A DNA stretch of 64,000 nt from an uncultured Thermoleophilia bacterium. Lineage in GTDB: Bacteria > Actinomycetota > Thermoleophilia > UBA2241. The DNA lies in contig CAVQSP010000011.1 in the NCBI GenBank assembly GCA_963715985.1, positions 96,001-160,000 on the forward strand, written 5' to 3'. Below are positions 36,601 to 56,150 of the stretch, in pieces (the first letter of the stretch is position 1; each line of letters starts with the position of its first letter). A program made the position numbers and the translations under genes. A model generated the notes under the pieces. It was not told where the DNA came from. It searched no databases and saw only the letters and a list, made by a program, of their open reading frames with translations.

Positions 36601-39600
36601 AGCCGACAGCTTCAGCACGATGTCTTGGCCGGCCACCACCGAGGCCGGTGCCTCGAAGGTGGCGGTCGGGGCGACGTTGGTGATGAGCGCCGTGGTCGTC
36701 GCGGTGCCGGTGGCGCCGTGCGTGTCGGTCACCCGCAGGGCGACCGGGTAGGTGCCGTTGTCGTCGTAGGTCCAGGCGGCGGTGGAGCCGACGGCGTCAT
36801 CGAAGATGCCGTCGGCGTCGAGGTCCCATGCGTAGGAGACGATCGAGTCGCCGCTCCCCTGGTCGGGGTCGCTCGAACCCCTGCCGTCGAGCATGACGGA
36901 CCCGCCCTCGGAGGCCGCGTAGGGGCCGCCTGCGTAGGCGATCGGCGGATGGTTCGGGGGCGTCACCTCCACGGTGGCCGAGTAGATGGTGGTGCCGCCG
37001 TCCTTGTCGCGGATGCGGCCCGCCACGGTGCGGACGCCGCTCGCGGTGGTCGGGAAGGTCACGGAGGCGGTGGGGCCGTAGGCGCCCAGGCCGGAGCCGT
37101 CGCCGCGGTCGAAGGCGTACCCGAAGCCGGCCGCGGTGTCGGCGAACGAGGGGTCGGAGGGAGCCGACAGCTTCAGCACGATGTCTTGGCCGGCCACCAC
37201 CGAGGCCGGTGCCTCGAAGGTGGCGGTCGGGGCGACGTTGGTGATGAGCGCCGTGGTCGTCGCGGTGCCGGTGGCGCCGTGCGTGTCGGTCACCCGCAGG
37301 GCGACCGGGTAGGTGCCGTTGTCGTCGTAGGTCCAGGCGGCGGTGGAGCCGACGGCGTCATCGAAGATGCCGTCGGCGTCGAGGTCCCATGCGTAGGAGA
37401 CGATACTGTCGCCGCTTGCGGCGTCGATGTCGAACGAATTGCGGCCTTCGAGCGCGAATGACCCGCCCTCGGCGGCGGTGTAGGGGCCGCCTGCGTAGGC
37501 GATCGGCGGGTTGTTCGGCGGCGGAGTGACCGTGATCGTCACCGTGGCGGTGGCGCGCTGGCCGAGGGCGTCGACGGCGGCGTAGGTGAAGGCGTCCATG
37601 CCGGCGAACCCCGCCGCCGGGACGTAGGTGAACGAGCCGTCGGCGGCGAGGGAGAGCGTGCCGTGGGTGACGTCGTCGCCCAGCGCGGCGGTGAGCGGGC
37701 CGCCCTCGGGGTCGCTGTCGTTGCCGAGCACGCCGGGCGCGGGGACGGTCAGGCTGCCGGACTCCACCACGGTGTAGGCGTCGCCGGCGGCGAGGGGCGG
37801 GTCGTTGGCGAACTCGGCGTGGTGCTCGGCGATCTCGCTGGCGGACAGCGAGCGGGCGTGGATCGCCACCTCGTCGATGGCGCCGGCGAGCATCTGGCTG
37901 AGCGCGGAGCCGTAGTAGTAGGCGCCGATGGTGAGCGGGTAGCTCCGGCTGATGAGGGCGGCCGTGATGCCGGTCGCTTCGGCGGCGAGTTCCCCGTCCA
38001 CGTACAGGCGGGAGGCCGAGCGGTCGTACGTGCCGGCCAGGTGATACCAGCGGCCCGGCACGAGCGCCGTATCGGACGTGATCCTCCTGATCCCGTCACC
38101 CGTGAACAGCGACCACTGGACGTGGCCGCCCTCGATCGGGGACAGGTAGTAGCTCCACGTGCTGGCAACCCCGTTGCCGTTCAGCAGCACGGTGGCGCCA
38201 GTGCCGGCCGCGGGGAGCCTGTCGAGTTTCACCCAGGCTTCCGCGGTGACCGACTGGGTCGGCCAGAGGTCGGGGTGGTAGGGAGCGGTCACAACGTCGT
38301 TGACGCCGTCGAAGGACAGCGCCGAGCCCGACACCCCGGTCGTCCACGTGGACCCGACGACGGTACCGTTGTGGCCGCGGCCCGTAGCGTCGAACGCGGT
38401 CGTTCCCTCGCCTTCGTCAAAGGACCAAGACGCCATCGTGAGCGACGCGACCGTGATCGTCACCGTGGCGGTGGCGCGCTGGCCGAGGGCGTCGACGGCG
38501 GCGTAGGTGAAGGCGTCCATGCCGGCGAACCCCGCCGCCGGGACATAGGTGAACGAGCCGTCGGCGGCGAGGGAGAGCGTGCCGTGGGTGACGTCGTCGC
38601 CCAGCGCGGCGGTGAGCGGGCCGCCCTCGGGGTCGCTGTCGTTGCCGAGCACGCCGGGCGCGGGGACGGTGAGGCTGCCGGACTCCACCACGGTGTAGGC
38701 GTCGCCGGCGGCGAGGGGCGGGTCGTTGGCCTCACGCTCGACCACGAACGGATCCCATCCTGAATCGGAGACGTCGTCCCAGCCAATCGGGGGCTTGTTC
38801 CAAATCCTGGCCGCGTCTTGGCCTCCATGGTAGTCGTTGGGCTCGTCGGGGAGCCATCCGGTGAAGGTGACCGGCTCGCCGCTCGCCCAGACCCATGTAC
38901 CTTCGATAGCACGGTCATTCATGCCGATGTAATACTCGGTCCCGAACGTGGCGATGAGCCAGCCGTTCTCGGCCGCGTCGCTGACCGTCACGAGATGGCC
39001 GCCGAGCGAGACCGCGTAGGCTTCGGCATCGGCCCAGGGCCTGCCGTCCTCGACGAACAGGTAGTCGTGGCCGGTGGCGGGGTTGTGCTGCCAGCCCTCG
39101 GGCCGCGGCACCTGCCAGGCGACCACCGTGGCGTTGCCATCGTCGTCGAACTGCGCGGCGCCTCCGGCGATGCCCGGCACGATGTCGACCGATGGCTCGT
39201 CGGGGCCACCGGCCACCGAGAAGTCCGCCATCCACTGACCGGAGGCGTCGGCGGTGATGTTGCGCTCCGCGCCGTCGATGACGTCGAAGAACAGGTGCAC
39301 CGCGCTGTCCGGCGTGGGCACCGTCCCAGACACGCGGTCGGCAGCGACGTCGACGGACGTGACCCGGAGGTCGATCACTATGTGTGACTTCGTCGTGGTC
39401 CCGTCAGTCACGCTGACCACGTCGCCCGCTTTGATTTCGTGCTGGACGTCGAACCAGCCGCCATAGCCCACGTCGGTCCACTCGACGGCGACGAACTCGG
39501 TCGCGTAGTCGGGCGACGGCGCGGTCAGGGGATCGTCGACCGTCACCGTGAGCGTGCTGTCGGCGGGCCAGAACTTCGCGAAGATGCCGGCAGCCCCCAC

Positions 39601-40716
39601 GCCGGGGTGCGCGTCGAACGACGGCAGTGGTGGCGCCTGCCAGCCGACATTCGTGCTGTCGCCGTCTTCATCGGCCTGCGCGGCAATGCCCGTCGTGCCC
39701 GGCACGATGTCGAGGACGGCCGAAAGATCGACTATCCAGGTGCCATCGCCTGCGGCGAAGGTGGAGAACCCCCCAGCAGCATCGTTCCACAGTGAGACCT
39801 CGGTGCCGGGCGAAGCCGTGCCGCGCACCACGTCCGCGGCTTGGTCGACCGAGATCACCGCAACGGCAGTCACGGTATGCGACTTGGTCGTGATCCCGTC
39901 CGTGACCGTGACCACATCACCCGGTTTGACCACGTAGTCGAACCAACGGCCGAACCCGTCTCCACCCACCGGATACTCCTCAGCGACGATACTCGTCGTG
40001 AAGTCCGGCGAGGCCGGAGTCGTCGGATCCTCGATCGTGAGCGCCAGCGTCTCTCCGGCGGTCCACCACTGGAAGTACACAAGGGTGCGCTCGGCGTCGC
40101 GGTGGACCTCGAACGCCGGGAGCTCCATGAGCTGCAGGTCGAAAGCGGTCTGGTCGCCGTCCGCGTCGCCGATGTTGGCCCCGACATGCGTATAGGGGGT
40201 GATGTCGACGCCGATGGCGCCGAAGTCGGCCGTCCAGTCCCCGTTGCCGTCCGAGGTGACCTCGAGGCCCGGAGTCTCATCCCCAACACCGGCGTCCACC
40301 CAGAACGTCGCGCTCGGCGGCGCGGTGCCCGTCACGGTGTCCTCGGCCGGCGAGAGCCCGTCGATGGAGAGGACCGCGAGGGTGAGCTCCCTGGTGGCCA
40401 GCCCCTCAGAGACCGAGATGCACATCCCGGGAACGAGGTCGACGCCCGGCACGGCCTCGAACCAGCCGACCGCGCCGACCAGCGCGGACCCCGAGTACAG
40501 GACCGTCCCGCCCGGCGCGTCCTTGACGACGACCGTCACCGTGGCGTACGGCGTGAAGCCGGGGCCGCTGATGGTGTCATAGCTGAGGTTGCCTTCGAAC
40601 GAAGCGTCCTCCAACTGCGCGGACGCAGCCGGCACGAAGATGAGGAGCGCGGCCAGTGCCGCCACGAACGCCAGAACGTGGAGCGCCCGGCCACCCGCAG
40701 ACCACCGAGTACGCAT
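33624..40716 (-). CDS. Giant secreted modular surface protein/adhesin (~2,360 aa): N-terminal Ig-like repeats, C-type lectin, cadherin/Ig x2, LamG x2, PKD repeats, choice-of-anchor-U-like, PxKF-like; frameshifts near 35100 and 34990
   Basis: Signal peptide after GGAGGGGG RBS; WADAEAYA..GGHLVT..EPND lectin; GVLGNDSDPEG; WYHLAGTY; YAWDLDADG; YWKYGPT; continuity ATQS(A)TVLSGALIDTATFGAKSFTV links ORFs 35080..40821 and 33624..34991. Confidence 0.85.
36427..37404. repeat. Near-identical intragenic duplication (PKD + Ig module), period 561 bp
   Basis: 36427-36843 matches 36988-37404 with only a few substitutions. Confidence 0.9.
37528..38730. repeat. Near-identical 282-bp intragenic duplication (cadherin/Ig module)
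   Basis: 37528-37809 matches 38449-38730 (offset 921). Confidence 0.9.
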
Positions 40717-40862
40717 CACAAACCCCCTCCTCGCAGCGAATACGCTGCGTCCCACCCGTCGCACGCCTGCATGCGCCCGTTCTCTCTCCCTCGCGACGTT
40801 TGGCCCCCGACACCGACCCAAGGCACCGTGCGCTGTACCTCAGAAATGCGAAGACCGGCCCG

Positions 40863-42981: not shown

Positions 42982-44316
42982 TCAGAGCCGGGAGAAGTAC
43001 TTGCGGATCTCCCAGTCGGTGACCTGCTCGCGGTACTCGTACCACTCGTTGAGCTTGTTGGTCACGAAGCGCTCGAAGACGTGGTCGCCGAGCGTGGTGC
43101 GCACGAGCTCGCTGTTCTGCGTGGCGCTGATCGCCTCGAACAGGTTGTTGGGCAGCGAGCCGAGGCCGTGCGTCTCGCGTTCGTCGGCGGTCATCTTGTA
43201 GATGTTGGGCTCGACCCCGGCGGGGAGCTCGTAGCCCTTCTCGATGCCCTCGAGGCCGGCGCTCAGCATGACGGCGAACGCCAGGTACGGGTTGGCGGCC
43301 GGGTCCGGGTTGCGCAGCTCGGCACGCACCGTGCTCTCCTTGCCCTGTACGTACAGGGGCACGCGGATGAGGGCGGTGCGGTTGCGGTGCGCCCAGCTGA
43401 TGTACACCGGTGCCTCGTAGCCGGGCACCAGGCGCTTGTAGCTGTTCACGTACTGGTTGAGCACCGAGGTGAACTCGCGCATGTGGCGGAGCTGGCCGGC
43501 GATGAAGCCTTTGGCGATGTCGCTCAGGTGGTCCGGGTCGGTCTCACTGAAGAAGGCGTTGCTCTTCTCCCGGAACAGGCTCTGGTGCACGTGCATGCCG
43601 CTGCCGTTCTGGCCGTGCATGGGCTTGGGCATGAAGGTGGCGTGCACGCCGTTGTGCGCCGCGACTTCCTTCACGATAAGGCGGATGATCATGACGCGGT
43701 CCGCCATCTCCAGGGCCTTGTCGTAGTGCGGGTCGATCTCGTGCTGCGACGGGGCGACCTCGTGGTGGCTGGCCTCCATGTGGATGCCGAGCTTGTCCAG
43801 GGTGCGCATGGTCTGCTTGCGCAGGTCGTTGCCGAGGTCGTCGGGCAGCACATCGAAGTAGCCGCCCTCGTCGGTGAGCTCGGGGTACTCGGCGTCCTTG
43901 AAGTAGAAGTACTCCAGCTCGGGGCCTATGTAGAAGTCCAGACCCAGGGCCTTGGCGCGCTCGAGCTGGCGGCGCAGCACCCAGCGCGGGTCGCCCTCGA
44001 AGGGTCTGTAGTTGCGGTCCAGAACGTCGCAGAACACGAACGCGGTGCGCTCGCTGCCCTGCGACCAGGGAAGGACGTGGAAGGTGCTCCAGTCGGGCAT
44101 CGCGACGATGTCCGACTCCTCGATCTCGGCATAGCCGCTGATAGACGAACCGTCGAAGGCGGCCCCGCTCTCGATCACGCTGTCGAGCTGGCGGTCGGGG
44201 ACCTCGACCATCTTCAGGTTGCCGAGGATGTCCGTGAACCACAACTGGATGTGCTTCACGTTCTCGTCTGCGACGACCTTGCGGATCGCGGCCTGATCAT
44301 CAGTGCTCATCGTCAT
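42982..44316 (-). CDS. glnA: Glutamine synthetase type I (GSI-alpha-like); start 44316 or 44310
   Basis: FDGSSISG, GPELEY, HHEVAPSQHE, ATFMPKP, NGSGMHVHQS, NSYKRLVPGYEAP, ELRNPDPAANPYL. Confidence 0.96.
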   Translation of the reverse strand: MTMSTDDQAAIRKVVADENVKHIQLWFTDILGNLKMVEVPDRQLDSVIESGAAFDGSSISGYAEIEESDIVAMPDWSTFHVLPWSQGSERTAFVFCDVLDRNYRPFEGDPRWVLRRQLERAKALGLDFYIGPELEYFYFKDAEYPELTDEGGYFDVLPDDLGNDLRKQTMRTLDKLGIHMEASHHEVAPSQHEIDPHYDKALEMADRVMIIRLIVKEVAAHNGVHATFMPKPMHGQNGSGMHVHQSLFREKSNAFFSETDPDHLSDIAKGFIAGQLRHMREFTSVLNQYVNSYKRLVPGYEAPVYISWAHRNRTALIRVPLYVQGKESTVRAELRNPDPAANPYLAFAVMLSAGLEGIEKGYELPAGVEPNIYKMTADERETHGLGSLPNNLFEAISATQNSELVRTTLGDHVFERFVTNKLNEWYEYREQVTDWEIRKYFSRL

Positions 44317-44518
44317 CCTCTCGGGTCGGTGGTGCGCTCCTGCGCATCGGTCGTGGGGTGAAACGCCGGTGACTCTATGTGGACGCGAGCGCGACGCCCG
44401 CGGGTGAAGACGCACGGCAGGGCCGCAGCCGGAACTGCGAGGAGAGGTGAGGAGGTGAAAGGAGCGGCCCCCGGACGGGGGCCTGCAAGAACGACTCTAT
44501 CGCGGAGCGCCACATGCG

Positions 44519-44569
44519 TCATGCGGCGGACTCCTCGAGGATGAAGGCGGTGTCGCCTGTGCTGATCAT
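44519..44569 (-). other. 16-aa upstream ORF MISTGDTAFILEESAA resembling the AmtB N-terminus
   Basis: GAGGAGAGG RBS, ATG 44569, TGA 44521-44519; TATACT -10 at 44621-44616. Confidence 0.55.
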
Positions 44570-44670
44570 GCCGATCCCTCTCCTCAGAGGTCACGCTGCG
44601 TCTGTGCGATGAACCAGTATATCGCGCGCGGACGGCGGCTGCCCAGCGAGAGCGCGACGGGCGCGGCGCT

Positions 44671-44900
44671 GGGGCGGGCACGGCGTTGGGGGCGGGCACG
44701 GCGTTGGGGGCGGGCACGGCGTTGGGTTCGCGAAGGGCCATTCAAGCAACGGCACTTCCAACGGTACTTCCAAACGTGCCTTCGCTTGATACGCGCCGCG
44801 CGAACATGCCCCTCCGGCGGTCACACCGGGGCCGCGCGAACATGCCCTTCCGGCGGTCCTGCCGGTGCCCCGCGACCGCGCCCCTCTGACGGTCCTGCCG
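44671..44900. repeat. Composite tandem repeats (3x18 bp, 2-3x12 bp, about 3x36 bp)
   Basis: GGGGCGGGCACGGCGTTG x3 at 44671-44724; AACGGYACTTCC x2 at 44748-44771; GCCGCGCGAACATGCCCYTCCGGCGGTC at 44795 and 44831, degenerate at 44867. Confidence 0.85.
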
Positions 44901-45058
44901 GCGCAGCGCATGCCCACCGCCGGCATGGCCGACCTGTCGCCGGAGTGGCCGGCGCGGCTGCGGCATCCGGCCCCACGCCCGGCCAGTGCTGAGCGCCTGG
45001 TCCGTCAAGGTGCCGCCGTCCGCCTGGCGGTCAGCTGGACTGCGTGCCGCCGCACGCT

Positions 45059-45076
45059 TTGTGACATTCTGCACAA
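45059..45076. promoter_or_regulatory. Rex-like operator upstream of the CODH/ACS operon
   Basis: TTGTGACATTCTGCACAA versus Rex consensus TTGTGAA-N4-TTCACAA. Confidence 0.65.
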
Positions 45077-45197
45077 TGATTGCGGCCTGAATATCCGTCC
45101 TGTACAGTGTTTTGCAGCTTCACCGGGCGCCTCCGCCGCCGTCGCGCGGCCGTGAGGCGCCTCTCATCCATTCGCATCACTTGACAAGGAGCGGTCG

Positions 45198-45521
45198 ATG
45201 GAAGAGCTGGTTCTCGCGGTGCCGGGCCTGTGGGCCGATCACCACGTGCTCACCGTGCGCGACCTGCTCAGGCAGGACGAGGCCGTCAAGGTCGTCACCG
45301 TGAGCGCCCTGGAACGCAGCGTGACGCTGGCGTTCGACCCTGCCCGCACCGACCCTCAGCGTATCGCTGCGCTGCTCGCGGACGGCGGGTACGCGACCGG
45401 GCCGGCCGAGGAACCTGACGCTCCCCCCACGAACAAGCCCGCCTGGGCGACGGCCGGGGTGCGGGTCACCCGCACCAACGCCGTCGACCTCGCGATGTCC
45501 GGAGACCACCGCAAGTACTGA
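45198..45521 (+). CDS. HMA-fold protein lacking Cys (LWADHH in place of MxCxxC)
   Basis: LAVPGLWADHHV...VTLAFDP...IAALLADGGY is a CopZ-like layout; AAGGAG RBS. Confidence 0.75.
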   Translation: MEELVLAVPGLWADHHVLTVRDLLRQDEAVKVVTVSALERSVTLAFDPARTDPQRIAALLADGGYATGPAEEPDAPPTNKPAWATAGVRVTRTNAVDLAMSGDHRKY

Positions 45522-45636
45522 CGGTCCGCGTCGTTCTCACGCTTGCCCCTCAGAAGCCAGCCGCCGCGCACGCGGCCGCAGCGCCGTCGCACCGTGACCG
45601 CGCTGCCGGCGCCCCGGCGGCAGAAGGAGACCACTC

Positions 45637-47759
45637 ATGGACGATGAGAAGAACGACGTCGTAGCGGCCGGAGCCGCCAAGAGCATCGACCCGGCGGCCA
45701 TCGAGATGCTCGCGCACGCCGACGAGTGCGGCATCGAGACGGCCTTCAGCAGGGCCGACCACATGAAGCCGTGCCCCATCGGCGAGAGCGGCGCCTGCTG
45801 CCGCATCTGCTCCATGGGCCCGTGCCGCCTGGTCGGCAAGGACGCCGAGGAGAAGACGGGCATCTGCGGCGCCGACATGGGCACGATCGCCTCCCGGCAC
45901 TTCGCGCGCCAGGTGGCCGGGGGCGTGGCCGCGCACAGCGACCACGGCCGCGACATGGCCATGACCCTGCGCGCGGTGGCCAAGGGCGAGGCCGCCGGCT
46001 ACACCGTCAAGGACGAGCAGAAGCTCCACTCCGTGGCCGGCTACATGGGTATCCCCACAGCCGGCCGCGAGGTCAACGAGATCGCCCTGGACGTGGCCGA
46101 CAAGGCCCTCGAGCAGTTCGGTCAGTCACACGGCGAGATCATCTACACCAAGCGCGCCACGCTGAAGCGTCAGGCCAAGTGGCGCGAGCTCGGTCTCACC
46201 CCTCGTGCCATCGACCGTGAGGTGGTCGAGATCATGCACCGCACCCACGAGGGCGTGGACCTCGACGCCGAGAACATCCTCAAGAGCGCGCTGCGCTGCT
46301 CCCTGGCCGACGGCTGGGGCGGCGCCATGCTGAGCACGGACATCAGCGACATCCTCTTCGGCACGCCGTCGCCCCTCGCCAGCGAGGTCAACCTCGGCGT
46401 GCTCAAGTCGGACCAGGTCAACGTCATCGTGCACGGGCACGAGCCCACGCTCTCGGCGATGCTCGTGGAGGCCGCCCGCGACCCCGAGCTCATCGCCGAG
46501 GCCCGGGCTGCCGGCGCCGAGGGCATCAACCTCGCCGGCATCTGCTGCACCAGCAACGAGATCCTCATGCGCTACGGCATCCCGGCGGCCGGCAACTTCC
46601 TGCACCAGGAGCTGGCCGTGCTCACCGGCGCCGTCGAGACCATGGTCGTCGACGTGCAGTGCATCATGCAGGCCCTCGGACCGCTCGCGCAGCGCTTCCA
46701 CACGCAGCTCGTCACCACGTCGCCCAAGGCCAAGATCCAGGGTGCGGTGCACGTGGAGTTCGACGAACACCGCGCCCCCGAGACGGCCCGCGAGATCGTG
46801 CGCATGGCGATCGCCAACTACCCCAACCGCGGCCCCATCCACATCCCCGACTTCCACGAGCCGCTCGTGGCGGGCTTCAGTCACGAGTACCTCAACTACA
46901 TGCAGGGTGGCTTCCACCGCGGCTCGTTCCGGCCGCTCAACGACGCGATCATCGCCGGCCGCATCCGCGGACTCGCCGGCGTCGTCGGCTGCAACAACGT
47001 GCGCGTCACGCAGGACGAGGGCATCGTCGACATGATCAAGCGCTTCATCGCCGACGACGTCATGGTCGTGGTGACCGGCTGCGCCGCCACCGCAGGCGCC
47101 AAGGCCGGCTACCTCAGTCCCGAGATCCTCGACCACGCCGGCCCCGGCCTGCGCGAGGTCATGGAGGCCATCGGCATCCCGCCGGTGCTGCACCTGGGCT
47201 CCTGCGTGGACAACTCCCGCATCCTCACGGTGCTCACGCAGGTCGCCACCGAGGGCGGCCTCGGCGAGGACATCGACGACCTGCCGGCGGTGGGCCTCTG
47301 CCCGGAGTGGATGTGCGAGAAGGCCATCGCCATCGGCACCTACTTCGCCGCCTCCGGCGCGCACGTCATCTTCGGCGTGAGCAGCCCGGTGAAGGCCTCC
47401 AGCGAGGCCACGCGGCTCATGACCACCGGCTGGGAAGCGATGGTGGGCGGCGACCTCGAGTTCATCCCGGACTGGGACGAGATGTACGCGCGCTCGCTCG
47501 AGCTCATCGACGCCAAGCGCGAGGCCCTCAAGTTGCCGCAGTACGACCCGGCTCAGTTCGGCGCCAGCGGCGACTCGATGTTCTTCGCCGCCATCAAGGA
47601 GTACCTGGCCGAGAAGGCGGCGGAGCAGGAGCGCGGCCTGGAGACGGTCGGCTCGCCGGTCTACCCGCTCGCCGAGGGCCACTCCCACGACCCCGGCGAA
47701 CGGGCACCCGCACGACGCACGGCGGCGACGGGCACGCGCACGGCGAGGGGGAGGCCTGA
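45637..47759 (+). CDS. cooS: Ni-dependent CO dehydrogenase catalytic subunit (AcsA/CooS); frameshift in His-rich tail
   Basis: CPIG..GACCRICSMGPC, AHSDH, HGHEP, GICCT, DVQC, GCNN, TGC, GSCVD, EKA; TGA 47757-47759 overlaps the acsB ATG. Confidence 0.95.
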
Positions 47760-50045
47760 TGTCGCGCTACATCGCCACGCGCGCGATCCGCGGCGCCAAC
47801 ACCATCCTGGCCGAGGCCGAGACCCTCGTGAACGAGGCCGTCGAAGAGCTCGGCCCCGAGACGCCGGTGGCGTTCACCAACACCGCCTACTACCTGCCGG
47901 TGGTGTACGCCTTCACCGGCGTCAAGGTGCAGACGCTCGGCGACCTGCAGGGCGTCATCGCGCGCGCCAAGGAGCTCGTGCACCCCGTGCCGGCCAGCCA
48001 GTTCTGGCTGCCGTACCTGGGCGAGACGCTGGACAGCGGCGTGGCCACCCTCTTCGCCGAGGAGGCCATCGAGGGCGTGCGCTTCGCCCGCCACCAGGAG
48101 CCGCAGATCCTGCACCTCGACCACGCCGGCAGCGACGGCGAGCGCTTCACCGGCGGCGACCTGCTGGTGCACGGCGACAAGATGAAGCTCAACGGCCCCA
48201 TCGACGACATCCAGCTGCGCGCCTGGGGCATCCAGCTGGTGGACGGGCGCATGCCCGGGTTCTGCGCCATCGTGGGCTGCGCCAAGAGCAACGAGGTCGC
48301 CGTCAAGATCGTGCGCGAGCTGCAGAGCCGCGGCATCCTCATCTTCCTCAGCGGCAACGTCAACGGGCGCAGCATCATCCACCAGCTGCAGGAAGAGGGC
48401 ATCCAGCTCGGCTACGACACCTTCACGGTGCCGTTCGGCGTGGACACCATCTCCGCCGTGTACGCGCTCGGGTTCGCGGCCCGCTCGGCCCTCACCTTCG
48501 GCGGCATGGAGCCGGGCCAGGCGCGCGACATCATGCTCTACAACAAGTACCGCGTGTTCGCCTTCGTGCTGGCCCTCGGCGAGGTGGACGACCTCAAGTA
48601 CGCCACCGCCGCCGGCGCCATCAGCTTCGGCTTCCCCACCATCGCCGACACGCGCATCCCGCAGATCCTGCCCACCGGCGTGACCACCTACGAGCACGTC
48701 GTGAGCATGCCGTTCGACGAGATCCCCGGCGCCGACGACATGGAGAAGACGGAGAAGCTCATCCAGCGCTGCATCGAGGTGCGCGGCGTCAAGGTGCGCA
48801 TCGCCAAGGTGCCCATCCCGGTGAGCTACGGCTCGGCCTTTGAAGGCGAGCGCATCCGCAAGGACATCATGTACGCCGAGTTCGGCGGCAAGCGCTCGCG
48901 GGCCTTCGAGTTCCTGCGCATGCGCCCGGCCGACGAGGTCGAGGACGGCAAGATCACCATCAACGGGCCCGACATCGACACCATGGAAGAGGGCGGAGCG
49001 GCCCCGCTGGGCATGGTCGTCGACGTCAGCGGGCGCAAGATGCAGACGCGACTTCGAGCCCATCCTCGAGCGCCAGTTCCACTACTTCATCAACGGCGTG
49101 GAGGGCATCCAGCACAACGGCCAGCGCGACATCGCCTGGACGCGCATCAGCAAGGGCACCTTCGCCAAGGGCTTCCGCCTGGAGCACTTCGGCAAGGTGC
49201 TGCACGCGCGCATCCACGAGGTGTTCGGCAACATCGTCGACAAGGTGCAGGTGCACCTCACCACCGACGCCGCCGAGGTGGACGAGCTCATCGAGGTGGC
49301 GCGCGTGGCCTACGCCGAGCGCAACGAGCGCATCGCCACACTCACCGACGAGTCGGTGGACACCTTCTACTCGTGCCTGCTCTGCCAGAGCTTCGCGCCC
49401 AACCACGTCTGCGTAGTGAACCCTGAGCGCGTGGGCCTGTGCGGCGCCTACAACTGGCTCGACTGCAAGGCCTCCTTCGAGATCAACCCGACGGGGCCCA
49501 ACCAGCCGGTGCCCAAGGGTCTCGTCATCGACCCGGTCAAAGGCGAGTTCACGGGCCCCAACGAGTACATCCACCAGCACTCCAATCAGACCGTCGACCG
49601 CGTGACGTTCTACTCGTGCATCGAGTCGCCGATGACCTCATGCGGCTGCTTCGAGTGCATCATGGTGCTCGTCCCCGAGGCCAACGGCTACATGATCGTC
49701 AGCCGTGAGGACCCCAGCATGACCCCGTGCGGCATGACGTTCTCCACCCTGGCCGGCACGGCCGGCGGCGGCATGCAGACGCCCGGCATGATGGGCATGG
49801 GCAAGTACTACCTCACCAGCCACAAGTTCATCTCCGGCGACGGCGGCATCCGCCGCGTCGTCTGGCTGAGCTCCAACCTCAAGGAGAGCATGCGACCGGC
49901 CCTGGAGGAGATCTGCGAGCGCGAGGGCGTGCCCGGGCTGCTCGAGCAGATCGCCGACGAGACCGTCGCCACCACCGTTGAGGAACTTCTTCCCTTCCTC
50001 GAGGAACATGGGCATCCTGCCCTGACCATGGATCCCATCTTCTGA
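47759..50045 (+). CDS. acsB: Acetyl-CoA synthase, frameshift near 49050
   Basis: TAYYLP, LVDGRMPG, AFEGERIRK, CLLCQSFAPNHVC, GLCGA, MTSCGCFEC. Confidence 0.95.
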
Positions 50046-50070: not shown

Positions 50071-51033
50071 ATGAGTGCAGTTGAGACCCCGGTAGAGAAG
50101 TGGTCCGGCGCCGTGCGTGAGATCACGCTCGGCAGCAGCTATGGAGGCGGCACCCGAACCAGCACGGTGACGGTGGGCGGCGAGACTGCTCTGCCGTTCC
50201 TCAGCTTCGAAGGCGCCATGCCCAACCGTCCTGCGATCGCCGTCGAGGTCACCGACGTGCGCCCGGACGACTGGTCGCCCGAGCTGCAGGCGACGTGGGG
50301 CGACCTGCTCGGCGACCCGGCCGCGTGGGCGGCGGCAGCCGTGGAGAAGGGCGCCGACCTGATCGCCCTGAGCCTGAGAGGCTGCCACCCGGACAACGGC
50401 GACCTCGACCACACGCACGCGGTGCAGGTGGTCGAGCGTGTGCTCGCGCACGTGGGCGTGCCGCTGCTCGTGTACGGCCCCGGCGTGGCCGACAAGGACA
50501 ACGACGTGCTCGTGGCGGTGGCCGAGGCCACCAAGGGCGAGCAGCTGGCGCTGGGCGTCTGCGAGGAGAAGAACTACCGCACCATCGTGGCCGCCGCCCT
50601 CGGCAACGGCCACACGGTGATCGCCGAGACGCCCATCGACGTGAACCTGGCCAAGCAGCTCAACATCCTCATCTCCGACATGGGCCTGCCGCTGGAGCGC
50701 GTGCTCATGGACCCCAACACGGGCGCCCTGGGCTACGGCATCGAGTACACCTACTCGGTGATGGAGCGTCTGCGCCTCGCCGCCCTCATGGGCGACGCCA
50801 TGACCCAGCAGCCCATGATCTGCCAGGTGGGCAGTGAGGCGTGGCGCCAGAAGGAATGTCGCGCCACTGAGACCCCCGACGCCTGGGGCGACCTCGCCAC
50901 CCGCGGCGTGGGCTGGGAGATCAGCACCGCCGTCACGCTGCTGCAGTCGGGTGCCGACATCCTCCTGCTGCGTCACCCGTCCTCGGTCGCCGCGGTGCGC
51001 GGCGCCATCGACGACCTCATGAAAGGGGCGTGA
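50071..51033 (+). CDS. acsD: Corrinoid iron-sulfur protein small subunit
   Basis: VGGETALPF, NYRTI, PIDVNLAKQLN, LGYGIEYTYSVMERLR, RHP. Confidence 0.95.
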   Translation: MSAVETPVEKWSGAVREITLGSSYGGGTRTSTVTVGGETALPFLSFEGAMPNRPAIAVEVTDVRPDDWSPELQATWGDLLGDPAAWAAAAVEKGADLIALSLRGCHPDNGDLDHTHAVQVVERVLAHVGVPLLVYGPGVADKDNDVLVAVAEATKGEQLALGVCEEKNYRTIVAAALGNGHTVIAETPIDVNLAKQLNILISDMGLPLERVLMDPNTGALGYGIEYTYSVMERLRLAALMGDAMTQQPMICQVGSEAWRQKECRATETPDAWGDLATRGVGWEISTAVTLLQSGADILLLRHPSSVAAVRGAIDDLMKGA

Positions 51034-51036
51034 CCC

Positions 51037-52386
51037 ATGGCCCTGTCTGGACTCGAGATCTACAAGCTGCTGCCCAAGACCAACTGCAAGGAGTGCGGCT
51101 TCCCCACCTGCCTGGCCTTCGCCATGAAGCTGGCGCAGAAGGGCACCGAGCTGGACAACTGCCCCTACGTGAGCGATGAGGCCAAGACGGCGCTGGACGC
51201 CGCCTCGGCGCCGCCCATCAAGCTCGTCACCATCGGCGCCGGTGAGCGCGCCTTCGAGATCGGCAACGAGGTCGTGCTGTTCCGCCACGAGAAGACCTTC
51301 TACCACCAGCCTGGGCTGGTGGCGCGTGTGGCCTGCGACGACCCGCAGCTCGCGGCGAAGGCGGCGGCGGCTTGCGCCTATGAGGTCGAGCGCGTCGGCA
51401 TGATCCTGCGCCTCGACGGCCTCGCCGTGGAGCACACCGCGGGTGACGCGGCCGCGTACGCCGCGGCGGTGGCCGCGGCCCGCGCAGCCGCCCCCGGCCT
51501 GCCGCTCGTGCTCATGACGTCCGACGCGGCGGCGGCCGACGCGGCCCTCGCGGGCGGCGCCGCCGCGGAGAAGCCGCTCCTGCACGCCGCCACTGCCGCC
51601 AACTGGCAGGCCATGGCCGAGGTCGCCGTGAAGCACGGCGTGCCGCTGGCCATCAACGTGGAGAACGGCGATCTCTCAGGGCTGGCTGAGCTCTCCGCCC
51701 AGGTCACGGGCGCCGGTGTGGAGGACCTCGTCCTCGACCCCGGCACCGGCACTCTGGGCGCGGACCTCGCGGCCTTCACCCAGCTTCGCCGCCTCGCCCT
51801 CAAGAAGGGCGCCCGCGCCCTCGGCTACCCCATCTTCGCCCTCTGCGGCGCGGACACGTGGGAGCTGGAGCTGGCCCGCGCCTCGCAGGCGATCGGCAAG
51901 TACGCCGGCGTCATCGTGCTCGACCACACCGAGCCGTCCGTCTACTACGCGCTCATCACGCTGCGCCAGAACCTGTACACCGACCCGCAGAAGCCCATCC
52001 AGGTGGAGCCCAAGCTCTACGAGATCGGCTCCCCCACCGCCGACAGCCCGATCATGATCACCACGAACTTCTCGCTCACGTACTTCTCCGTGTCCGGCGA
52101 GGCGGAGGGTGCGGGCATGCCGTCGTGGCTGCTCGTCGCCGACAGCGACGGCCAGTCCGTGCTCACCGCCTGGGCGGCCGGCAAGTTCGACGCCGAGAAG
52201 ATCGCCAAGACCGTCAAGGACAGCGGCATCGAGAACATGGTGAACCACCGCAAGCTGGTCATCCCCGGCCACGTGGCCGGCCTCTCCGGCGAGGTGGAGG
52301 AGGAGCTCCCCGGCTGGCAGATCATGGTGGGCCCGCGCGACGCCGTGGACATCCCCAACTACCTCAAGACGGTCTGGAGTGCGTGA
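51037..52386 (+). CDS. acsC: Corrinoid iron-sulfur protein large subunit
   Basis: LPKTNCKECGFPTCLAFA..CPY, YTDPQKP, TTNFSLTYF, SVLTAWAAGKF, VGPR. Confidence 0.96.
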   Translation: MALSGLEIYKLLPKTNCKECGFPTCLAFAMKLAQKGTELDNCPYVSDEAKTALDAASAPPIKLVTIGAGERAFEIGNEVVLFRHEKTFYHQPGLVARVACDDPQLAAKAAAACAYEVERVGMILRLDGLAVEHTAGDAAAYAAAVAAARAAAPGLPLVLMTSDAAAADAALAGGAAAEKPLLHAATAANWQAMAEVAVKHGVPLAINVENGDLSGLAELSAQVTGAGVEDLVLDPGTGTLGADLAAFTQLRRLALKKGARALGYPIFALCGADTWELELARASQAIGKYAGVIVLDHTEPSVYYALITLRQNLYTDPQKPIQVEPKLYEIGSPTADSPIMITTNFSLTYFSVSGEAEGAGMPSWLLVADSDGQSVLTAWAAGKFDAEKIAKTVKDSGIENMVNHRKLVIPGHVAGLSGEVEEELPGWQIMVGPRDAVDIPNYLKTVWSA

Positions 52387-52448: not shown

Positions 52449-54428
52449 ATGAACGAGGCGCCGGTCACGACCAGCCGTACGGCCATGGCCACCATCACCT
52501 TCACGCCCTCGGGCGAGACGGTGGAGGTGCCGGCCGGCACCAGCCTGCTCGACGCGGCCATCCTCTGCGAGCTGGACGTCCCGGCGCCGTGCGCCGGGCA
52601 GGGCCGCTGCGGCCGCTGCCGCGTGCGCGTGCTCAGCGGCGACGTGGAGCGGCGCAGCAACGCCGGCCTCGAGACGGCCGAGATCCTGGACGGCTGGGCC
52701 GTGGCCTGCCAGACGTACGCCAGGGGCTCGGCCGAGGTGGAGGTGCCCGACCGGCGCAAGGAGAAGGTGCGCCCGCACGGGCACGCCGTGGCCGAGCCCG
52801 AGTCGCTGCCGCTCAGCTGCGACTGGCGGCAGAACCCGGCGGTGCGGACCTTCGAGCTCGAGATCGACCCGCCCACGCTCGACGACCAGACCAGCGACTT
52901 CGACCGCCTGCGTCGGGCGCTGTCGCAGCAGTACGGTCTGGAGGAGATCCGCGCCGAGCTGCCCATGCTGCGCAGACTCGGCAAGGACCTGCGCATGTCC
53001 AACTGGAAGATCAGTGTCACGCTCGAGATGCGCGACTGGGTGTACGGCACGTACCTGCCGCCGCGCCTCATCCGCATCTACCCGGGCGCCTTCAAGCACC
53101 AGAGCATGGGGCTCGCCATCGACCTCGGCACCACCTCGGTGGTCGTGTACCTGCTCGACTTCGGCAGCGGCCGCGTGGTCGACTCGGCGAGCGCCTACAA
53201 CAAGCAGATCTCCTGCGGCGAGGACGTCATCAGCCGGATCATCTACGCCAAGCGCAAGCGCGGGCTGGACCGCCTGCAACACCTCGCCGTGGAGACCATC
53301 AACGAGCTGCTCTCCGAGTTGCAGACGCGCAACGGCATCGAGCTCTACGAGATCCACGAGATCGCCGTGGCCGGCAACACCACCATGATCCACCTGCTGC
53401 TGGGCCTGGACCCGCGCTTCCTGCGCGAGGAGCCGTACATCCCCACCATCGCCTCGGCGCCCAAGCTGGTGGCGGGCGAGCTGGGGCTCAACGCCAACAT
53501 GCTCGCCCGCGTGCACGTGCTGCCGTCGGTGGGCAGCTACGTGGGCGGCGACATCACCGCCGGGGTCATCTCCTCCGGCATGTACGCCACCGACAAGCTC
53601 ACCCTGTTCATCGACATCGGCACCAACGGCGAGATGGTGCTGGGCAACCAGGACTGGCTGCTCTCGTGCGCCTGCTCCGCCGGGCCCGCCTTCGAGGGTG
53701 GCGGCGTCGTCCACGGCATGCGCGCCACCGCGGGCGCCATCGAAGACGTCTTCGTCGACGACGCCACGTGGGAGCCCTCCTTCAGGACGGTGGACGACGC
53801 CCCGGCCGTGGGCATCTGCGGCAGCGGCCTCATCGACCTCCTCGGCGAGCTCTTCGTCACCGGCCTGCTCGACAAGTCGGGGCACTTCGACCTGGAAGCG
53901 GCCACGGCCCGCGTACGCGTGCGCGACGGCGTGCCCGAGTACGTGGTGTGCCGCGCCGGTGAGGGTGGGGCCGCCAAGGACATCTGCCTCACCGAGTCGG
54001 ACGTCACCGGTCTGCTGCGCGCCAAGGCGGCCATCTACGCCGGCTACATGGTGCTGTGCCGCAGCGTCGGCGTAGAGCTGGGCGATGTGGAGCAGTTCCT
54101 CATCGGCGGCGCCTTCGGCCAGTACCTCAACGTGGAGAAGGCCATCCGCATCGGGCTGCTGCCGGACCTGCCGGTCGAGCGCTTCCACTTCCTCGGCAAC
54201 ACCAGCGCCCAGGGCGCCTACTCGGCCCTCCTGTGCGTCAACATGCGGCACGACGTGCAAGACGTGGCCGCCAAGATGACCTACCTGGAACTGAGCGCCG
54301 ACAACAGCTTCATGGACGAGTACACGTCGGCGCTCTTCCTCCCGCACACCGACCTGAGCGTGTTCCCGACCGTGCAGGCTTCGCTCGCCAAGCGCACCAC
54401 CGGTACGGCGCCGCAGGACAGCCCCTGA
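52449..54428 (+). CDS. acsV: Corrinoid reductive activator (RACo/AcsV; 2Fe-2S + ASKHA ATPase)
   Basis: CAGQGRCGRC...AC, DLGTT, GNTTM, VGGDI, DIGTNGE, SAGPAFEG, GICGSG, GGAFG. Confidence 0.9.
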   Translation: MNEAPVTTSRTAMATITFTPSGETVEVPAGTSLLDAAILCELDVPAPCAGQGRCGRCRVRVLSGDVERRSNAGLETAEILDGWAVACQTYARGSAEVEVPDRRKEKVRPHGHAVAEPESLPLSCDWRQNPAVRTFELEIDPPTLDDQTSDFDRLRRALSQQYGLEEIRAELPMLRRLGKDLRMSNWKISVTLEMRDWVYGTYLPPRLIRIYPGAFKHQSMGLAIDLGTTSVVVYLLDFGSGRVVDSASAYNKQISCGEDVISRIIYAKRKRGLDRLQHLAVETINELLSELQTRNGIELYEIHEIAVAGNTTMIHLLLGLDPRFLREEPYIPTIASAPKLVAGELGLNANMLARVHVLPSVGSYVGGDITAGVISSGMYATDKLTLFIDIGTNGEMVLGNQDWLLSCACSAGPAFEGGGVVHGMRATAGAIEDVFVDDATWEPSFRTVDDAPAVGICGSGLIDLLGELFVTGLLDKSGHFDLEAATARVRVRDGVPEYVVCRAGEGGAAKDICLTESDVTGLLRAKAAIYAGYMVLCRSVGVELGDVEQFLIGGAFGQYLNVEKAIRIGLLPDLPVERFHFLGNTSAQGAYSALLCVNMRHDVQDVAAKMTYLELSADNSFMDEYTSALFLPHTDLSVFPTVQASLAKRTTGTAPQDSP

Positions 54429-54444: not shown

Positions 54445-55220
54445 ATGACCACCACCATCGCCGTCGCCGGCAAGGGAGGGACGGGCAAGACCACGCTGGC
54501 CGGTCTGCTCATCCGCCGGCTGGCGGAGGACAAGACCGGCCCCATCCTGGCCATCGACGCCGACCCGGCCAGCAACCTCAACACCGTGCTCGGCCTGCCG
54601 CTCGAGAAGACGGTGGGCGACGTGCGCGAGGAGACCGGCGAGAAGGCGCGCGCCAACCTGCTCGAGGCCGGCATCGCCAAACGCGACCTCCTCGACTACG
54701 AGATCAACGCCAGCGTCGTCGAGGGCGTGGGCGTCGACCTGATCGCCATGGGCCGCCCGGAAGGTCCGGGCTGCTACTGCGCCGCCAACAGCATGCTGCG
54801 CGGCATCATCGACGCCATCGCCGACAGCTACCCTATGGTCGTGATCGACAACGAGGCGGGCCTGGAGCACCTCTCGCGGCGCACCACGCGCGACGTGGAC
54901 GTGCTGTTCATCGTCAGCGACGCCACCGTACGCGGCCTCACCACCGCCGGCCGCATCGCCGCGCTCATCACGCGAGCTGGACACCAAGGTCGGCAAGCAC
55001 TACCTCATCGTCAACCGCGCCGCGGATGGTCTGACGCCCGAGCTCCGCGCGGCCATCGACGAGCACGGCCTGGACCTTCTGGCCGTGCTCCCCGACGACC
55101 CGCAGGTGGCGGCGCTCGACGCCGCCGGCCGCGCGATCGTCGACCTGCCCGGGCGACAGCGCCATGGCTACCGCCATGGGGCCCGTCGTCGACACCGTGC
55201 TCGCCCAGTCGAAGAAGTAG
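54445..55220 (+). CDS. cooC: CooC/AcsF nickel-insertion ATPase, frameshifts near 54972 and 55152
   Basis: GKGGTGKTT, IDADP, GPGCYC, DNEAGLEHLSR; ends ...QSKK TAG at 55220. Confidence 0.9.
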
Positions 55221-55229
55221 GAGGAACCG

Positions 55230-56150
55230 TTGCTCATCATCGGTGAGAACATCCAGATCCTCTCGCCGCCCATCAAGGCGGCCATCGAAGCCCGCGACAA
55301 GGGCCCGATCCAGGACCTGGCGGTCAAGCAGGTCGAGGCGGGCGCCGGCATCGTCGACCTGAACATCGGGCCGCAGAAGAAGCACGGTCACGAGATCATG
55401 CCGTGGATCGTGGAGGCGGTGCAGGAGGTCGTGGACGTCCCGCTCTCGCTGGACACGACCAACTTCGCGGCCATGGAGGCGGGGCTGCAGGTGTGCAAGA
55501 AGCCGGCCATGCTGAACTCGGCGTCGGCCGACCCGGACCGCCTGGACAGCGTGATGCAGCTCGCCGCCAAGTACAACGCGCGCGTCATCGCCCTCACCAT
55601 GGGCGTGGACGGCATCCCCACCACCGCCGACGGGCGCGCCGGCATCGCCATGGAGGCGCTGCTGCCGTCCGCCGAGGCCGCCGGCCTGCCGGTGCAGGAC
55701 GTCTTCCTCGACCCCCTGGTGCTCACGGTGACCTGCAACCAGGACGTGGCCAGGGAGTCGGTCGAGGCCATCCGCATGTTCAAGATGATGGCCGACCCGG
55801 CGCCCACCACGGTGGTCGGCCTCAGCAACGTCAGCAACGGCTGCCCGCCCGAGACGCGTCCGCTCATCAACCGCACCATGCTGGTGATGCTGATGGGTGC
55901 GGGTCTGGACAGCGCCATCGCCGACCCGCTGGACGCCACGCAGAACGCCTGGATCCGTGTGATCGAGGAGCGCGACGACAGCACTCCCCTGGGCAAGCTC
56001 ATCGTGGCCATGTACGACGCCACCGCCGCCATGGAGGATCTCGACCCCGACCTGGTCGACAAGAGCGATCCCGAGCAGGTCGACGTGTACAAGACCTACC
56101 GGATGCTGTGTAACGACGTCATCTACGCGGACTCGTACCTGCGCATCTGA
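55230..56150 (+). CDS. acsE: Methyl-THF:corrinoid protein methyltransferase
   Basis: IIGENI, DLNIG, LSLDT, LNS, DPLVL, GLSNVS pterin-binding barrel in acs context. Confidence 0.88.
   Translation: MLIIGENIQILSPPIKAAIEARDKGPIQDLAVKQVEAGAGIVDLNIGPQKKHGHEIMPWIVEAVQEVVDVPLSLDTTNFAAMEAGLQVCKKPAMLNSASADPDRLDSVMQLAAKYNARVIALTMGVDGIPTTADGRAGIAMEALLPSAEAAGLPVQDVFLDPLVLTVTCNQDVARESVEAIRMFKMMADPAPTTVVGLSNVSNGCPPETRPLINRTMLVMLMGAGLDSAIADPLDATQNAWIRVIEERDDSTPLGKLIVAMYDATAAMEDLDPDLVDKSDPEQVDVYKTYRMLCNDVIYADSYLRI

Follow-up and report, generated by a model that had tools for sequence, protein, structure and literature searches.

A 107-residue protein encoded at the head of a CODH/ACS operon combines a predicted HMA (heavy-metal-associated) fold, in which the usual two-Cys metal motif is replaced by Asp-His-His, with a conserved C-terminal tail. 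It belongs to a family, here called DHH-HMA, that on the evidence of gene order and genome content travels with one CODH/ACS operon type, found in some Thermoleophilia and some Chloroflexota. Our preferred reading, to which we assign a probability of about 0.4 from sequences and structure models, is that DHH-HMA is a dedicated metal-handling accessory protein, its metal most plausibly Ni(II), and that its tail would anchor the protein to either CooS or the CooC-like ATPase. The earlier note on this DNA had proposed a nickel chaperone, an interpretation that is partly supported by the data below.

The DHH-HMA gene and its operon

The window, i.e. the whole 64,000-nucleotide stretch of DNA analyzed here, contains the DHH-HMA gene with the following features:

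45198..45521, + strand: DHH-HMA gene, 107 aa plus stop (ORF; single copy in the genome)
45186..45191, + strand: Shine-Dalgarno AAGGAG, 6 nt before the ATG (read off the sequence)
45198..45407, + strand: HMA-fold domain, residues 1-70 (AF2 model, Foldseek and profile matches)
45222..45248, + strand: loop and helix start P9-G-L-W-A-D-H-H-V17, in place of GMTCxxC (HMM alignment)
45237-45245, + strand: D14-H15-H16 codons
45435..45518, + strand: conserved C-terminal tail, residues 80-107 (KPAW...R.T.T..DL.MSGDHRKY)

The protein contains no Cys, and its 107 residues include three His. In the translation, G64-Y65 closes the HMA domain and the C-terminus reads ...MSGDHRKY, confirming the C-terminal extension ending SGDHRKY that the earlier note had described. 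Pfam searches on the ORFs place the gene at the head of a CODH/ACS operon, with these genes downstream:

45637..47759, + strand: cooS/acsA, Ni-CODH catalytic subunit (Pfam Prismane, E 1.8e-158; TIGR01702, 588 bits)
47704..47756, + strand: His-rich C-terminal tail region of CooS, frame-broken (comparison with relatives; reads in three frames)
47759..50045, + strand: acsB, acetyl-CoA synthase (Pfam CODH_A_N, CdhC and ACS_CODH_B_C over two ORFs)
50071-51033, + strand: acsD, corrinoid Fe-S protein subunit (Pfam CdhD)
51037-52386, + strand: acsC, corrinoid Fe-S protein subunit (Pfam CdhD and FeS)
52449..54428, + strand: RACo, reductive activator of corrinoid protein (Pfam Fer2, RACo_linker, Raco_middle and RACo_C_ter)
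54445..55362, + strand: CooC/AcsF-like MinD-type ATPase with P-loop and C-Y-C motif (Pfam AAA_31/CbiA; translation)
55230..56150, + strand: acsE-like pterin-binding methyltransferase (Pfam Pterin_bind, E 1.9e-18)

By the Pfam families of its ORFs the operon holds no cooT, cooJ or hypA, as had been noticed from the sequence earlier. Upstream of the operon, on the opposite strand, lies the glutamine synthetase gene glnA. The 780-bp region between glnA and the operon carries tandem repeats at 44658-44726 (18 nt x 3.9) and 44795-44901 (36 nt x 3.0). Elsewhere in the window, a 1913-aa ORF (35080-40821, - strand) encodes a large surface protein whose domains are of the Laminin_G_3, bacterial Ig, cadherin-like, PKD and C-type lectin types.

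The DHH-HMA ORF is intact despite frame breaks in cooS, acsB and cooC. The cooS frame starting at 45637 misses the conserved TGA at 47757-47759, a stop codon that shares bases with the acsB ATG; as (47757-45637) mod 3 = 2, the break implies one or two single-base indels. In acsB, tblastn with the AcsB of a relative locates a frame shift near 49029-49048, and the Pfam CdhC match is split across the ORFs 47759-49426 and 48840-50045. The CooC-like ATPase is probably broken as well, its translation turning into Arg/Pro-rich nonsense past residue ~175 (~54970). These breaks are likely assembly indels, given the low contig number of the assembly and the similarly fragmented matches in many relatives whose assemblies are of that kind; real decay would be the other possible cause.

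Around the gene, a search of 44300-45700 against Rfam at E ≤ 1 returned no riboswitch, the sole match being a chance miRNA. The 115-nt spacer from DHH-HMA to cooS has a fold z-score of -0.86, and comparison of this spacer among 12 relatives revealed nothing conserved apart from the cooS ribosome site. Look-alikes of the tail, sought in the six frames of the window, were chance matches only. Four RNA runs contained 5-6% of the sampled words, as contigs of relatives. These RNA-library contigs cover parts of the DHH-HMA ORF, one of them joining the ORF to cooS, and give a weak hint, no demonstration, of transcription of the window gene.

An HMA fold with a rewritten metal site

In the AF2 model, built on a 48-sequence alignment, residues 1-70 adopt the b-a-b-b-a order with pLDDT values of 90-96. 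The top Foldseek matches of this model are MerP (1osd), CopZ (6ff2) and ATP7B domains, MerP 1osd superposing with an rmsd of 1.3 Å over 67 columns and a TM(target) of 0.85 (rmsd 1.2-1.3 Å for MerP/CopZ matches). The family profile, compared with solved structures, likewise matched HMA domains, with E-values of 2.5e-10 (CopZ 1k0v) and better. By model and profile, residues 1-70 form a genuine HMA fold, and the CopZ-like layout with GY at the domain end, suggested earlier from the translation, is borne out. In searches against family models, no Pfam family, the HMA model PF00403 included, matched the window protein at E ≤ 10, and the NCBIfam MerP/CopZ models gave E-values of 4e-4 to 3e-2, well below their cut-offs. 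PF00403 is carried by some relatives of the window protein.

The substitution falls on the metal site. In the profile alignment to HMA domains, A13 aligns to Cys1 and H16 to Cys2 of GMTCxxC, with D14 and H15 between them; the GMxCxxC motif is missing and G-L-W-A-D-H-H is aligned in its place, as the earlier note had read it. The other conserved residues particular to the family, P9, S36 and G64-Y65, presumably fall in the loops around the metal site of HMA structures. The marks of a Cu(I) chaperone, a Cys pair and a neighboring partner Cu-ATPase, are both absent from the window protein and its surroundings. Note that the three candidate ligands are consecutive at the start of a helix, so that a single protomer cannot form a good Ni site; such a lone triplet being a poor site, a dimer or a partner would have to complete it. 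D14 could also be a mere helix cap. In this model of the protein without a partner, the tail (residues 80-107) is of low confidence (pLDDT 56-74).

Conservation of the motif and of the tail

A search of 5.8 billion proteins returned 211 homologues at E ≤ 0.01, and nearly all of the 120 close homologues listed are 107 aa long. ADHH is present in 120/120 of these and WADHH in 118/120, which is beyond chance as judged from the alignments; loss of the DHH motif had been named beforehand as a result that would count against the nickel proposal, and the motif is kept. The description 'Cys-less' applies to the window protein and does not extend to the family, since 50 of the 120 listed close homologues have at least one Cys elsewhere.

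In an alignment of 48 sequences, down to 31% identity, D14, H15, S101, G102 and R105 are invariant, and P9, A13, H16, V17, S36, G64, Y65, W83, R89, T93, D97 and Y107 are at least 90% conserved. Among the 31 sequences obtained from loci, positions conserved to at least 90% amount to 17/28 in the tail (80-107) versus 22/70 in the domain. Neither His nor Cys is conserved in the tail: position 104 is H, F or Y across homologues, and the tail thus brings no conserved metal ligand. Members with this type of tail always stop at the terminal Tyr. From its sequence, a segment so well conserved and without conserved ligands resembles a docking peptide.

Exhaustive searching of 1.84 billion cluster representatives gave 163 matches at E ≤ 1e-3. 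Among the 150 listed, 93 carry [A/G/S]DHH, 41 are classical CxxC proteins, long and with several HMA domains, and 16 have neither motif; the latter are mostly N-terminal truncations, along with two variants, ADRH and ADHQ. Two tails are found on the 93 DHH-bearing representatives. Tail 1, as in the window, ends in SG[D/E]xR[K/R]Y (32/93), and tail 2 reads ...RH[T/S]...G...F...GRPLWPCPGF... (15/93); D14-H15-H16 is invariant in the alignment of the tail-2 subfamily too. The other 46 matched neither tail pattern, many being truncated and some being tail-less proteins of ~69 aa. The window protein fits the definition of DHH-HMA, with ADHH/GDHH at the HMA loop, tail 1 and a place before cooS.

Some members have additional N-terminal parts. 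An HTH_17/MerR/BldC-type domain precedes the module in 5/93 DHH-bearing representatives, with either tail (Pfam E 1e-11 to 3e-10; NCBIfam BldC 66.5 bits, for a cut-off of 77). A few others (P0143, P0152, P0175, P0261) carry a Cys-rich extension of ~100 residues with ~9-13 Cys, which matched no Pfam family at E ≤ 0.01; the best ESM Atlas score for that of P0143 was an uninformative 0.82. The whole protein matched unnamed or HMA clusters in the ESM Atlas, most commonly from Chloroflexota. In public annotations the relatives appear as 'heavy-metal-associated domain-containing protein', 'copper chaperone CopZ' or hypothetical proteins.

Gene order at DHH-HMA loci

Scanning the prokaryotes with each species represented by one genome gave 49 loci, of which 47 are true; L048 and L049 were rejected as chance pattern matches. 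cooS lies immediately downstream at 46 of the 47, and at the 47th the contig ends 52 bases past the gene. Wherever the contig extends far enough, cooS is followed by acsB, acsD and acsC. By their record titles the 47 loci come mostly from Thermoleophilia MAGs, and they include four Anaerolineae/Anaerolineales (42-46% identity) and two entries titled 'Actinomycetota' (36-38% identity). An apparent cooS-acsB fusion at locus L013 was discarded, the acsB frame being merely open across cooS in GC-rich DNA; other apparent fusions (open frames of 1263-1461 aa; L001) were not accepted either.

In a sample of 301 Chloroflexota genomes, eight contain full-length tail-2 genes, every one directly before cooS-acsB-...-acsD-acsC-RACo, and at some of these loci (L092, L093) the DHH-HMA ORF abuts or overlaps the cooS frame. 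Nine further Chloroflexota matches include five tail-1 genes directly before cooS and one degenerate copy with in-frame stops. In three related Chloroflexota genomes (L182:9759-10088 (-), L183:4638-4967 and L184) the tail-1 gene stands apart from cooS and is divergent from a 760-aa ORF; cooS and acsB are still present in these genomes, on other contigs. Metagenome contigs yielded seven HTH-fused genes; five of them have room downstream, and in 5/5 the next gene is cooS.

Co-occurrence with AcsB across genomes

We then compared the presence of the family with that of AcsB, scored by the AcsB C-terminal domain. In a sample of 301 genomes from the class to which the window belongs (the class sample), the family profile matched 68 at E ≤ 1e-10, of which 50, all at E ≤ 3e-25, were kept. 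The 18 weaker matches (E 1e-11 to 1e-14; 17 of family f6, plus G080) were considered as tail-less members and rejected: the eight that we translated are CxxC CopZ proteins, and all 18 were left out of the count, ten of them by analogy with these eight. The class sample divides as follows:

Family and AcsB: 48
Family without AcsB: 2 (in each, the gene is on a short contig of a fragmented assembly)
AcsB without family: 41 (of 89 AcsB-positive)
Neither: 210

In the Chloroflexota sample, AcsB is found in 15 of the 17 carriers, one of the two AcsB-less carriers having the gene and cooS side by side on a 4-kb contig, and the family is missing from 32 of the 47 AcsB genomes. Among 401 genomes covering the phylum Actinomycetota, only that of the window and one other of the same class carry the family. 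Six AcsB genomes of the class were inspected among those that lack the family (L176-L181). All six have the operon order RACo-cooC-...-acsD-cooS-acsB-acsC, in which cooS is not preceded by a small gene, and the N-terminal part of their AcsB is only 45-47% identical to that of the window. Overall, gene order and genome co-occurrence agree with the expectation, set out in the earlier note, that homologues would be linked to the Ni-enzyme genes cooS and acsB. The many AcsB genomes without DHH-HMA indicate that it is not a general requirement for CODH/ACS or for Ni insertion.

Other nickel helpers in the genome

The genome of the window spans 4.35 Mb in 22 contigs and is 88.8% complete. Within this 88.8% we found no match to CooT (PF10133), and neither this model nor that of HypA (PF01155) matched the window protein. 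HypA is encoded on contig C9, apart from the contig of the operon. A second cooS, on contig C8, is not ACS-linked and, the family being single-copy in the genome, has no DHH-HMA neighbor. HMA-type sequences also lie on the contig of the operon: a 700-aa HMA-bearing frame ~263 kb from the gene, which is likely a P-type ATPase, and an ordinary HMA-type match to the family profile (E 2.2e-7) at G000:C11:95179-95382 (-), ~600 bases before the window start.

The CooS of Thermoleophilia relatives ends in EGH.HDHGDGH.H...GEA* at the 26 loci showing the motif (e.g. L013:8439-8528); two Anaerolineae CooS ends (L040, L043) have no His-rich tail. This tail may be a built-in means of nickel capture on a CODH.

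Proposed role and alternatives

We propose that DHH-HMA would keep the HMA metal site at the b1-a1 loop, with the two soft thiolates exchanged for Asp-His-His. Such a set of ligands would bind a borderline divalent metal, and we infer that this metal is most plausibly Ni(II) because the enzymes of the adjoining genes need nickel in the C-cluster and the A-cluster. The conserved tail, disordered alone, would dock the protein onto a partner; CooS is favored because, at the linked loci, it is always the next gene, with CooC and AcsB as possible partners too. Once docked, DHH-HMA would hand Ni to the maturation machinery, which is the direction of transfer that we infer, or would report Ni status. 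A complex prediction of CooS (695 aa) with DHH-HMA, run without controls on 31-row alignments paired by locus, scored 0.00, a value that speaks neither for nor against binding.

Three points complicate the picture of a simple chaperone. Many CODH/ACS systems of the class and of the Chloroflexota do without DHH-HMA; with a CooC-like ATPase in the operon and a His-rich CooS tail in relatives, Ni capture may already be covered. The most conserved part of the protein is a tail in which no His or Cys is conserved. The HTH fusions, moreover, point to a sensor better than to a courier. The chaperone and sensor readings appear compatible, by analogy with UreE and NikR, in which the same fold class does both.

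On the sensor reading, which we consider unlikely though a serious rival, the protein would be the sensing half of a regulator that responds to Ni or to the state of CODH and controls acs transcription, directly when fused to an HTH domain and otherwise through a DNA-binding partner. The fusions of an HTH_17/MerR/BldC-type domain to the module with either tail type, their position directly before cooS at all five loci with room downstream, the Cys-rich N-terminal extensions of other relatives and the invariable first place of the gene in the operon are all consistent with it. The window protein, however, has no DNA-binding domain, fused forms are a minority of the DHH-bearing representatives, and genes that abut or overlap cooS suggest production nearly level with that of an enzyme subunit, something unusual in a regulator. 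A role without metal, as a small subunit or an assembly chaperone whose tail inserts into CooS or into the CooS-AcsB interface and whose DHH makes protein contacts, is improbable to a similar degree. It would explain why the tail is the best-conserved part and why, without a partner, it is modeled with low confidence, as expected of a segment that folds on binding; it also fits the adjacency to cooS in the 47-locus scan and at the tail-2 and HTH-fused loci, and the two tails on one domain could track two partner surfaces. On the other hand, three genomes hold the gene apart from cooS, and the substitution lies exactly at the canonical metal site, where Asp-His-His is invariant across subfamilies with different tails, which argues for a shared chemical role at this site.

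Asp/His sites are not specific to Ni in established coordination chemistry, and judging by the PDB titles of the matches the parent fold accommodates Cu, Zn, Cd and Hg. The metal might accordingly be Zn(II), Cu(II), Co(II) or Fe(II), for example with DHH-HMA as a scavenger shielding the labile Ni sites of the A- and C-cluster; Cu or Zn can sit in the proximal A-cluster site, and the enzyme is then inactive. With cooS, acsB and a cooC-like gene in the operon, the sole metal-specific context is that of Ni, and we regard another metal as quite improbable. Finally, the frame breaks in the window's cooS, acsB and cooC might raise the suspicion that the ORF is spurious, or the functionless relic of a decayed copper chaperone. 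The ORF itself is nevertheless intact and has a strong ribosome site, its 211 homologues are of almost fixed length, its motifs are invariant to ~35% identity across two phyla, and the alignments contradict a lack of purifying selection; a relic is scarcely credible. Beyond the accessory-protein reading that we prefer, a wider and more tentative one, which we hold to be somewhat unlikely, would make DHH-HMA a new Ni(II) unit for one CODH/ACS lineage in two guises: the free protein as a docking Ni supplier or checker, and the HTH-fused form as a Ni-responsive operon regulator. The free protein would then act at the C-cluster together with CooC and, in Thermoleophilia, with the His-rich CooS tail as well.

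Comparison with known systems

With CopZ, Atx1 and MerP (PF00403), DHH-HMA has in common the fold, sequence homology, a motif at the loop and helix start, and a G-Y before the last strand. It differs from them in having Asp-His-His where they have CxxC, in a conserved C-terminal extension of 37 residues that HMA chaperones lack, and in its neighbors, which are CODH/ACS genes instead of the P-type ATPase or mer genes found beside CopZ and MerP. The helpers of the R. rubrum type, CooC, CooT and CooJ, resemble it in another way: DHH-HMA is likewise small and encoded with a Ni-CODH, has His/Asp candidate ligands and shares its operon with a CooC-like ATPase, but it is unrelated to them in fold and sequence. 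CooJ has a His-rich C-terminal tail; DHH-HMA has none of this kind, and in its relatives the His-rich tail is on CooS instead. In addition, the R. rubrum-type helpers belong to a cooFS-hydrogenase cluster, whereas DHH-HMA belongs to an ACS-type operon.

UreE, a Ni chaperone, and NikR, a Ni-sensing repressor, have ferredoxin-like b-a-b-b-a-b domains and bind Ni(II) via His from two or more protomers. They provide a precedent for both the chaperone and the sensor readings, although no sequence match of DHH-HMA to either was seen in Pfam or NCBIfam. As for regulators of the BldC/MerR type, an HTH precedes the module in some relatives but not in the window protein.

Our literature searches found no paper on an HMA/CopZ-like gene beside CODH/ACS. 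Term look-ups in two papers on CODH genomic context (10.1101/2025.09.14.676152; PMC6344411) gave no such gene either, and their supplementary tables may list neighbor families. As a CODH/ACS-linked family defined by sequence comparison, DHH-HMA would therefore appear to be an unstudied small relative of the copper chaperones and a good candidate for a helper or sensor.

The C-cluster of CODH/ACS requires one Ni and its A-cluster two. To our knowledge, its maturation is poorly understood beyond a few model organisms, and the helpers that we know of, CooC/AcsF, CooT and CooJ, are missing from many genomes. This limits the heterologous production of CO2-fixing CODH/ACS, for which a conserved, operon-leading gene would be a concrete new candidate for co-expression. 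Nickel supply could also be approached, independently, through the His-rich tail that CooS carries in the Thermoleophilia relatives, and the HTH-fused relatives give direct access to the regulation of the acs operon in Chloroflexota. DHH-HMA would exemplify a change of metal specificity within the HMA fold, from Cys-Cys to Asp-His-His and, if the two-guise reading is true, a chaperone-sensor pair drawn from one repurposed copper-chaperone fold.
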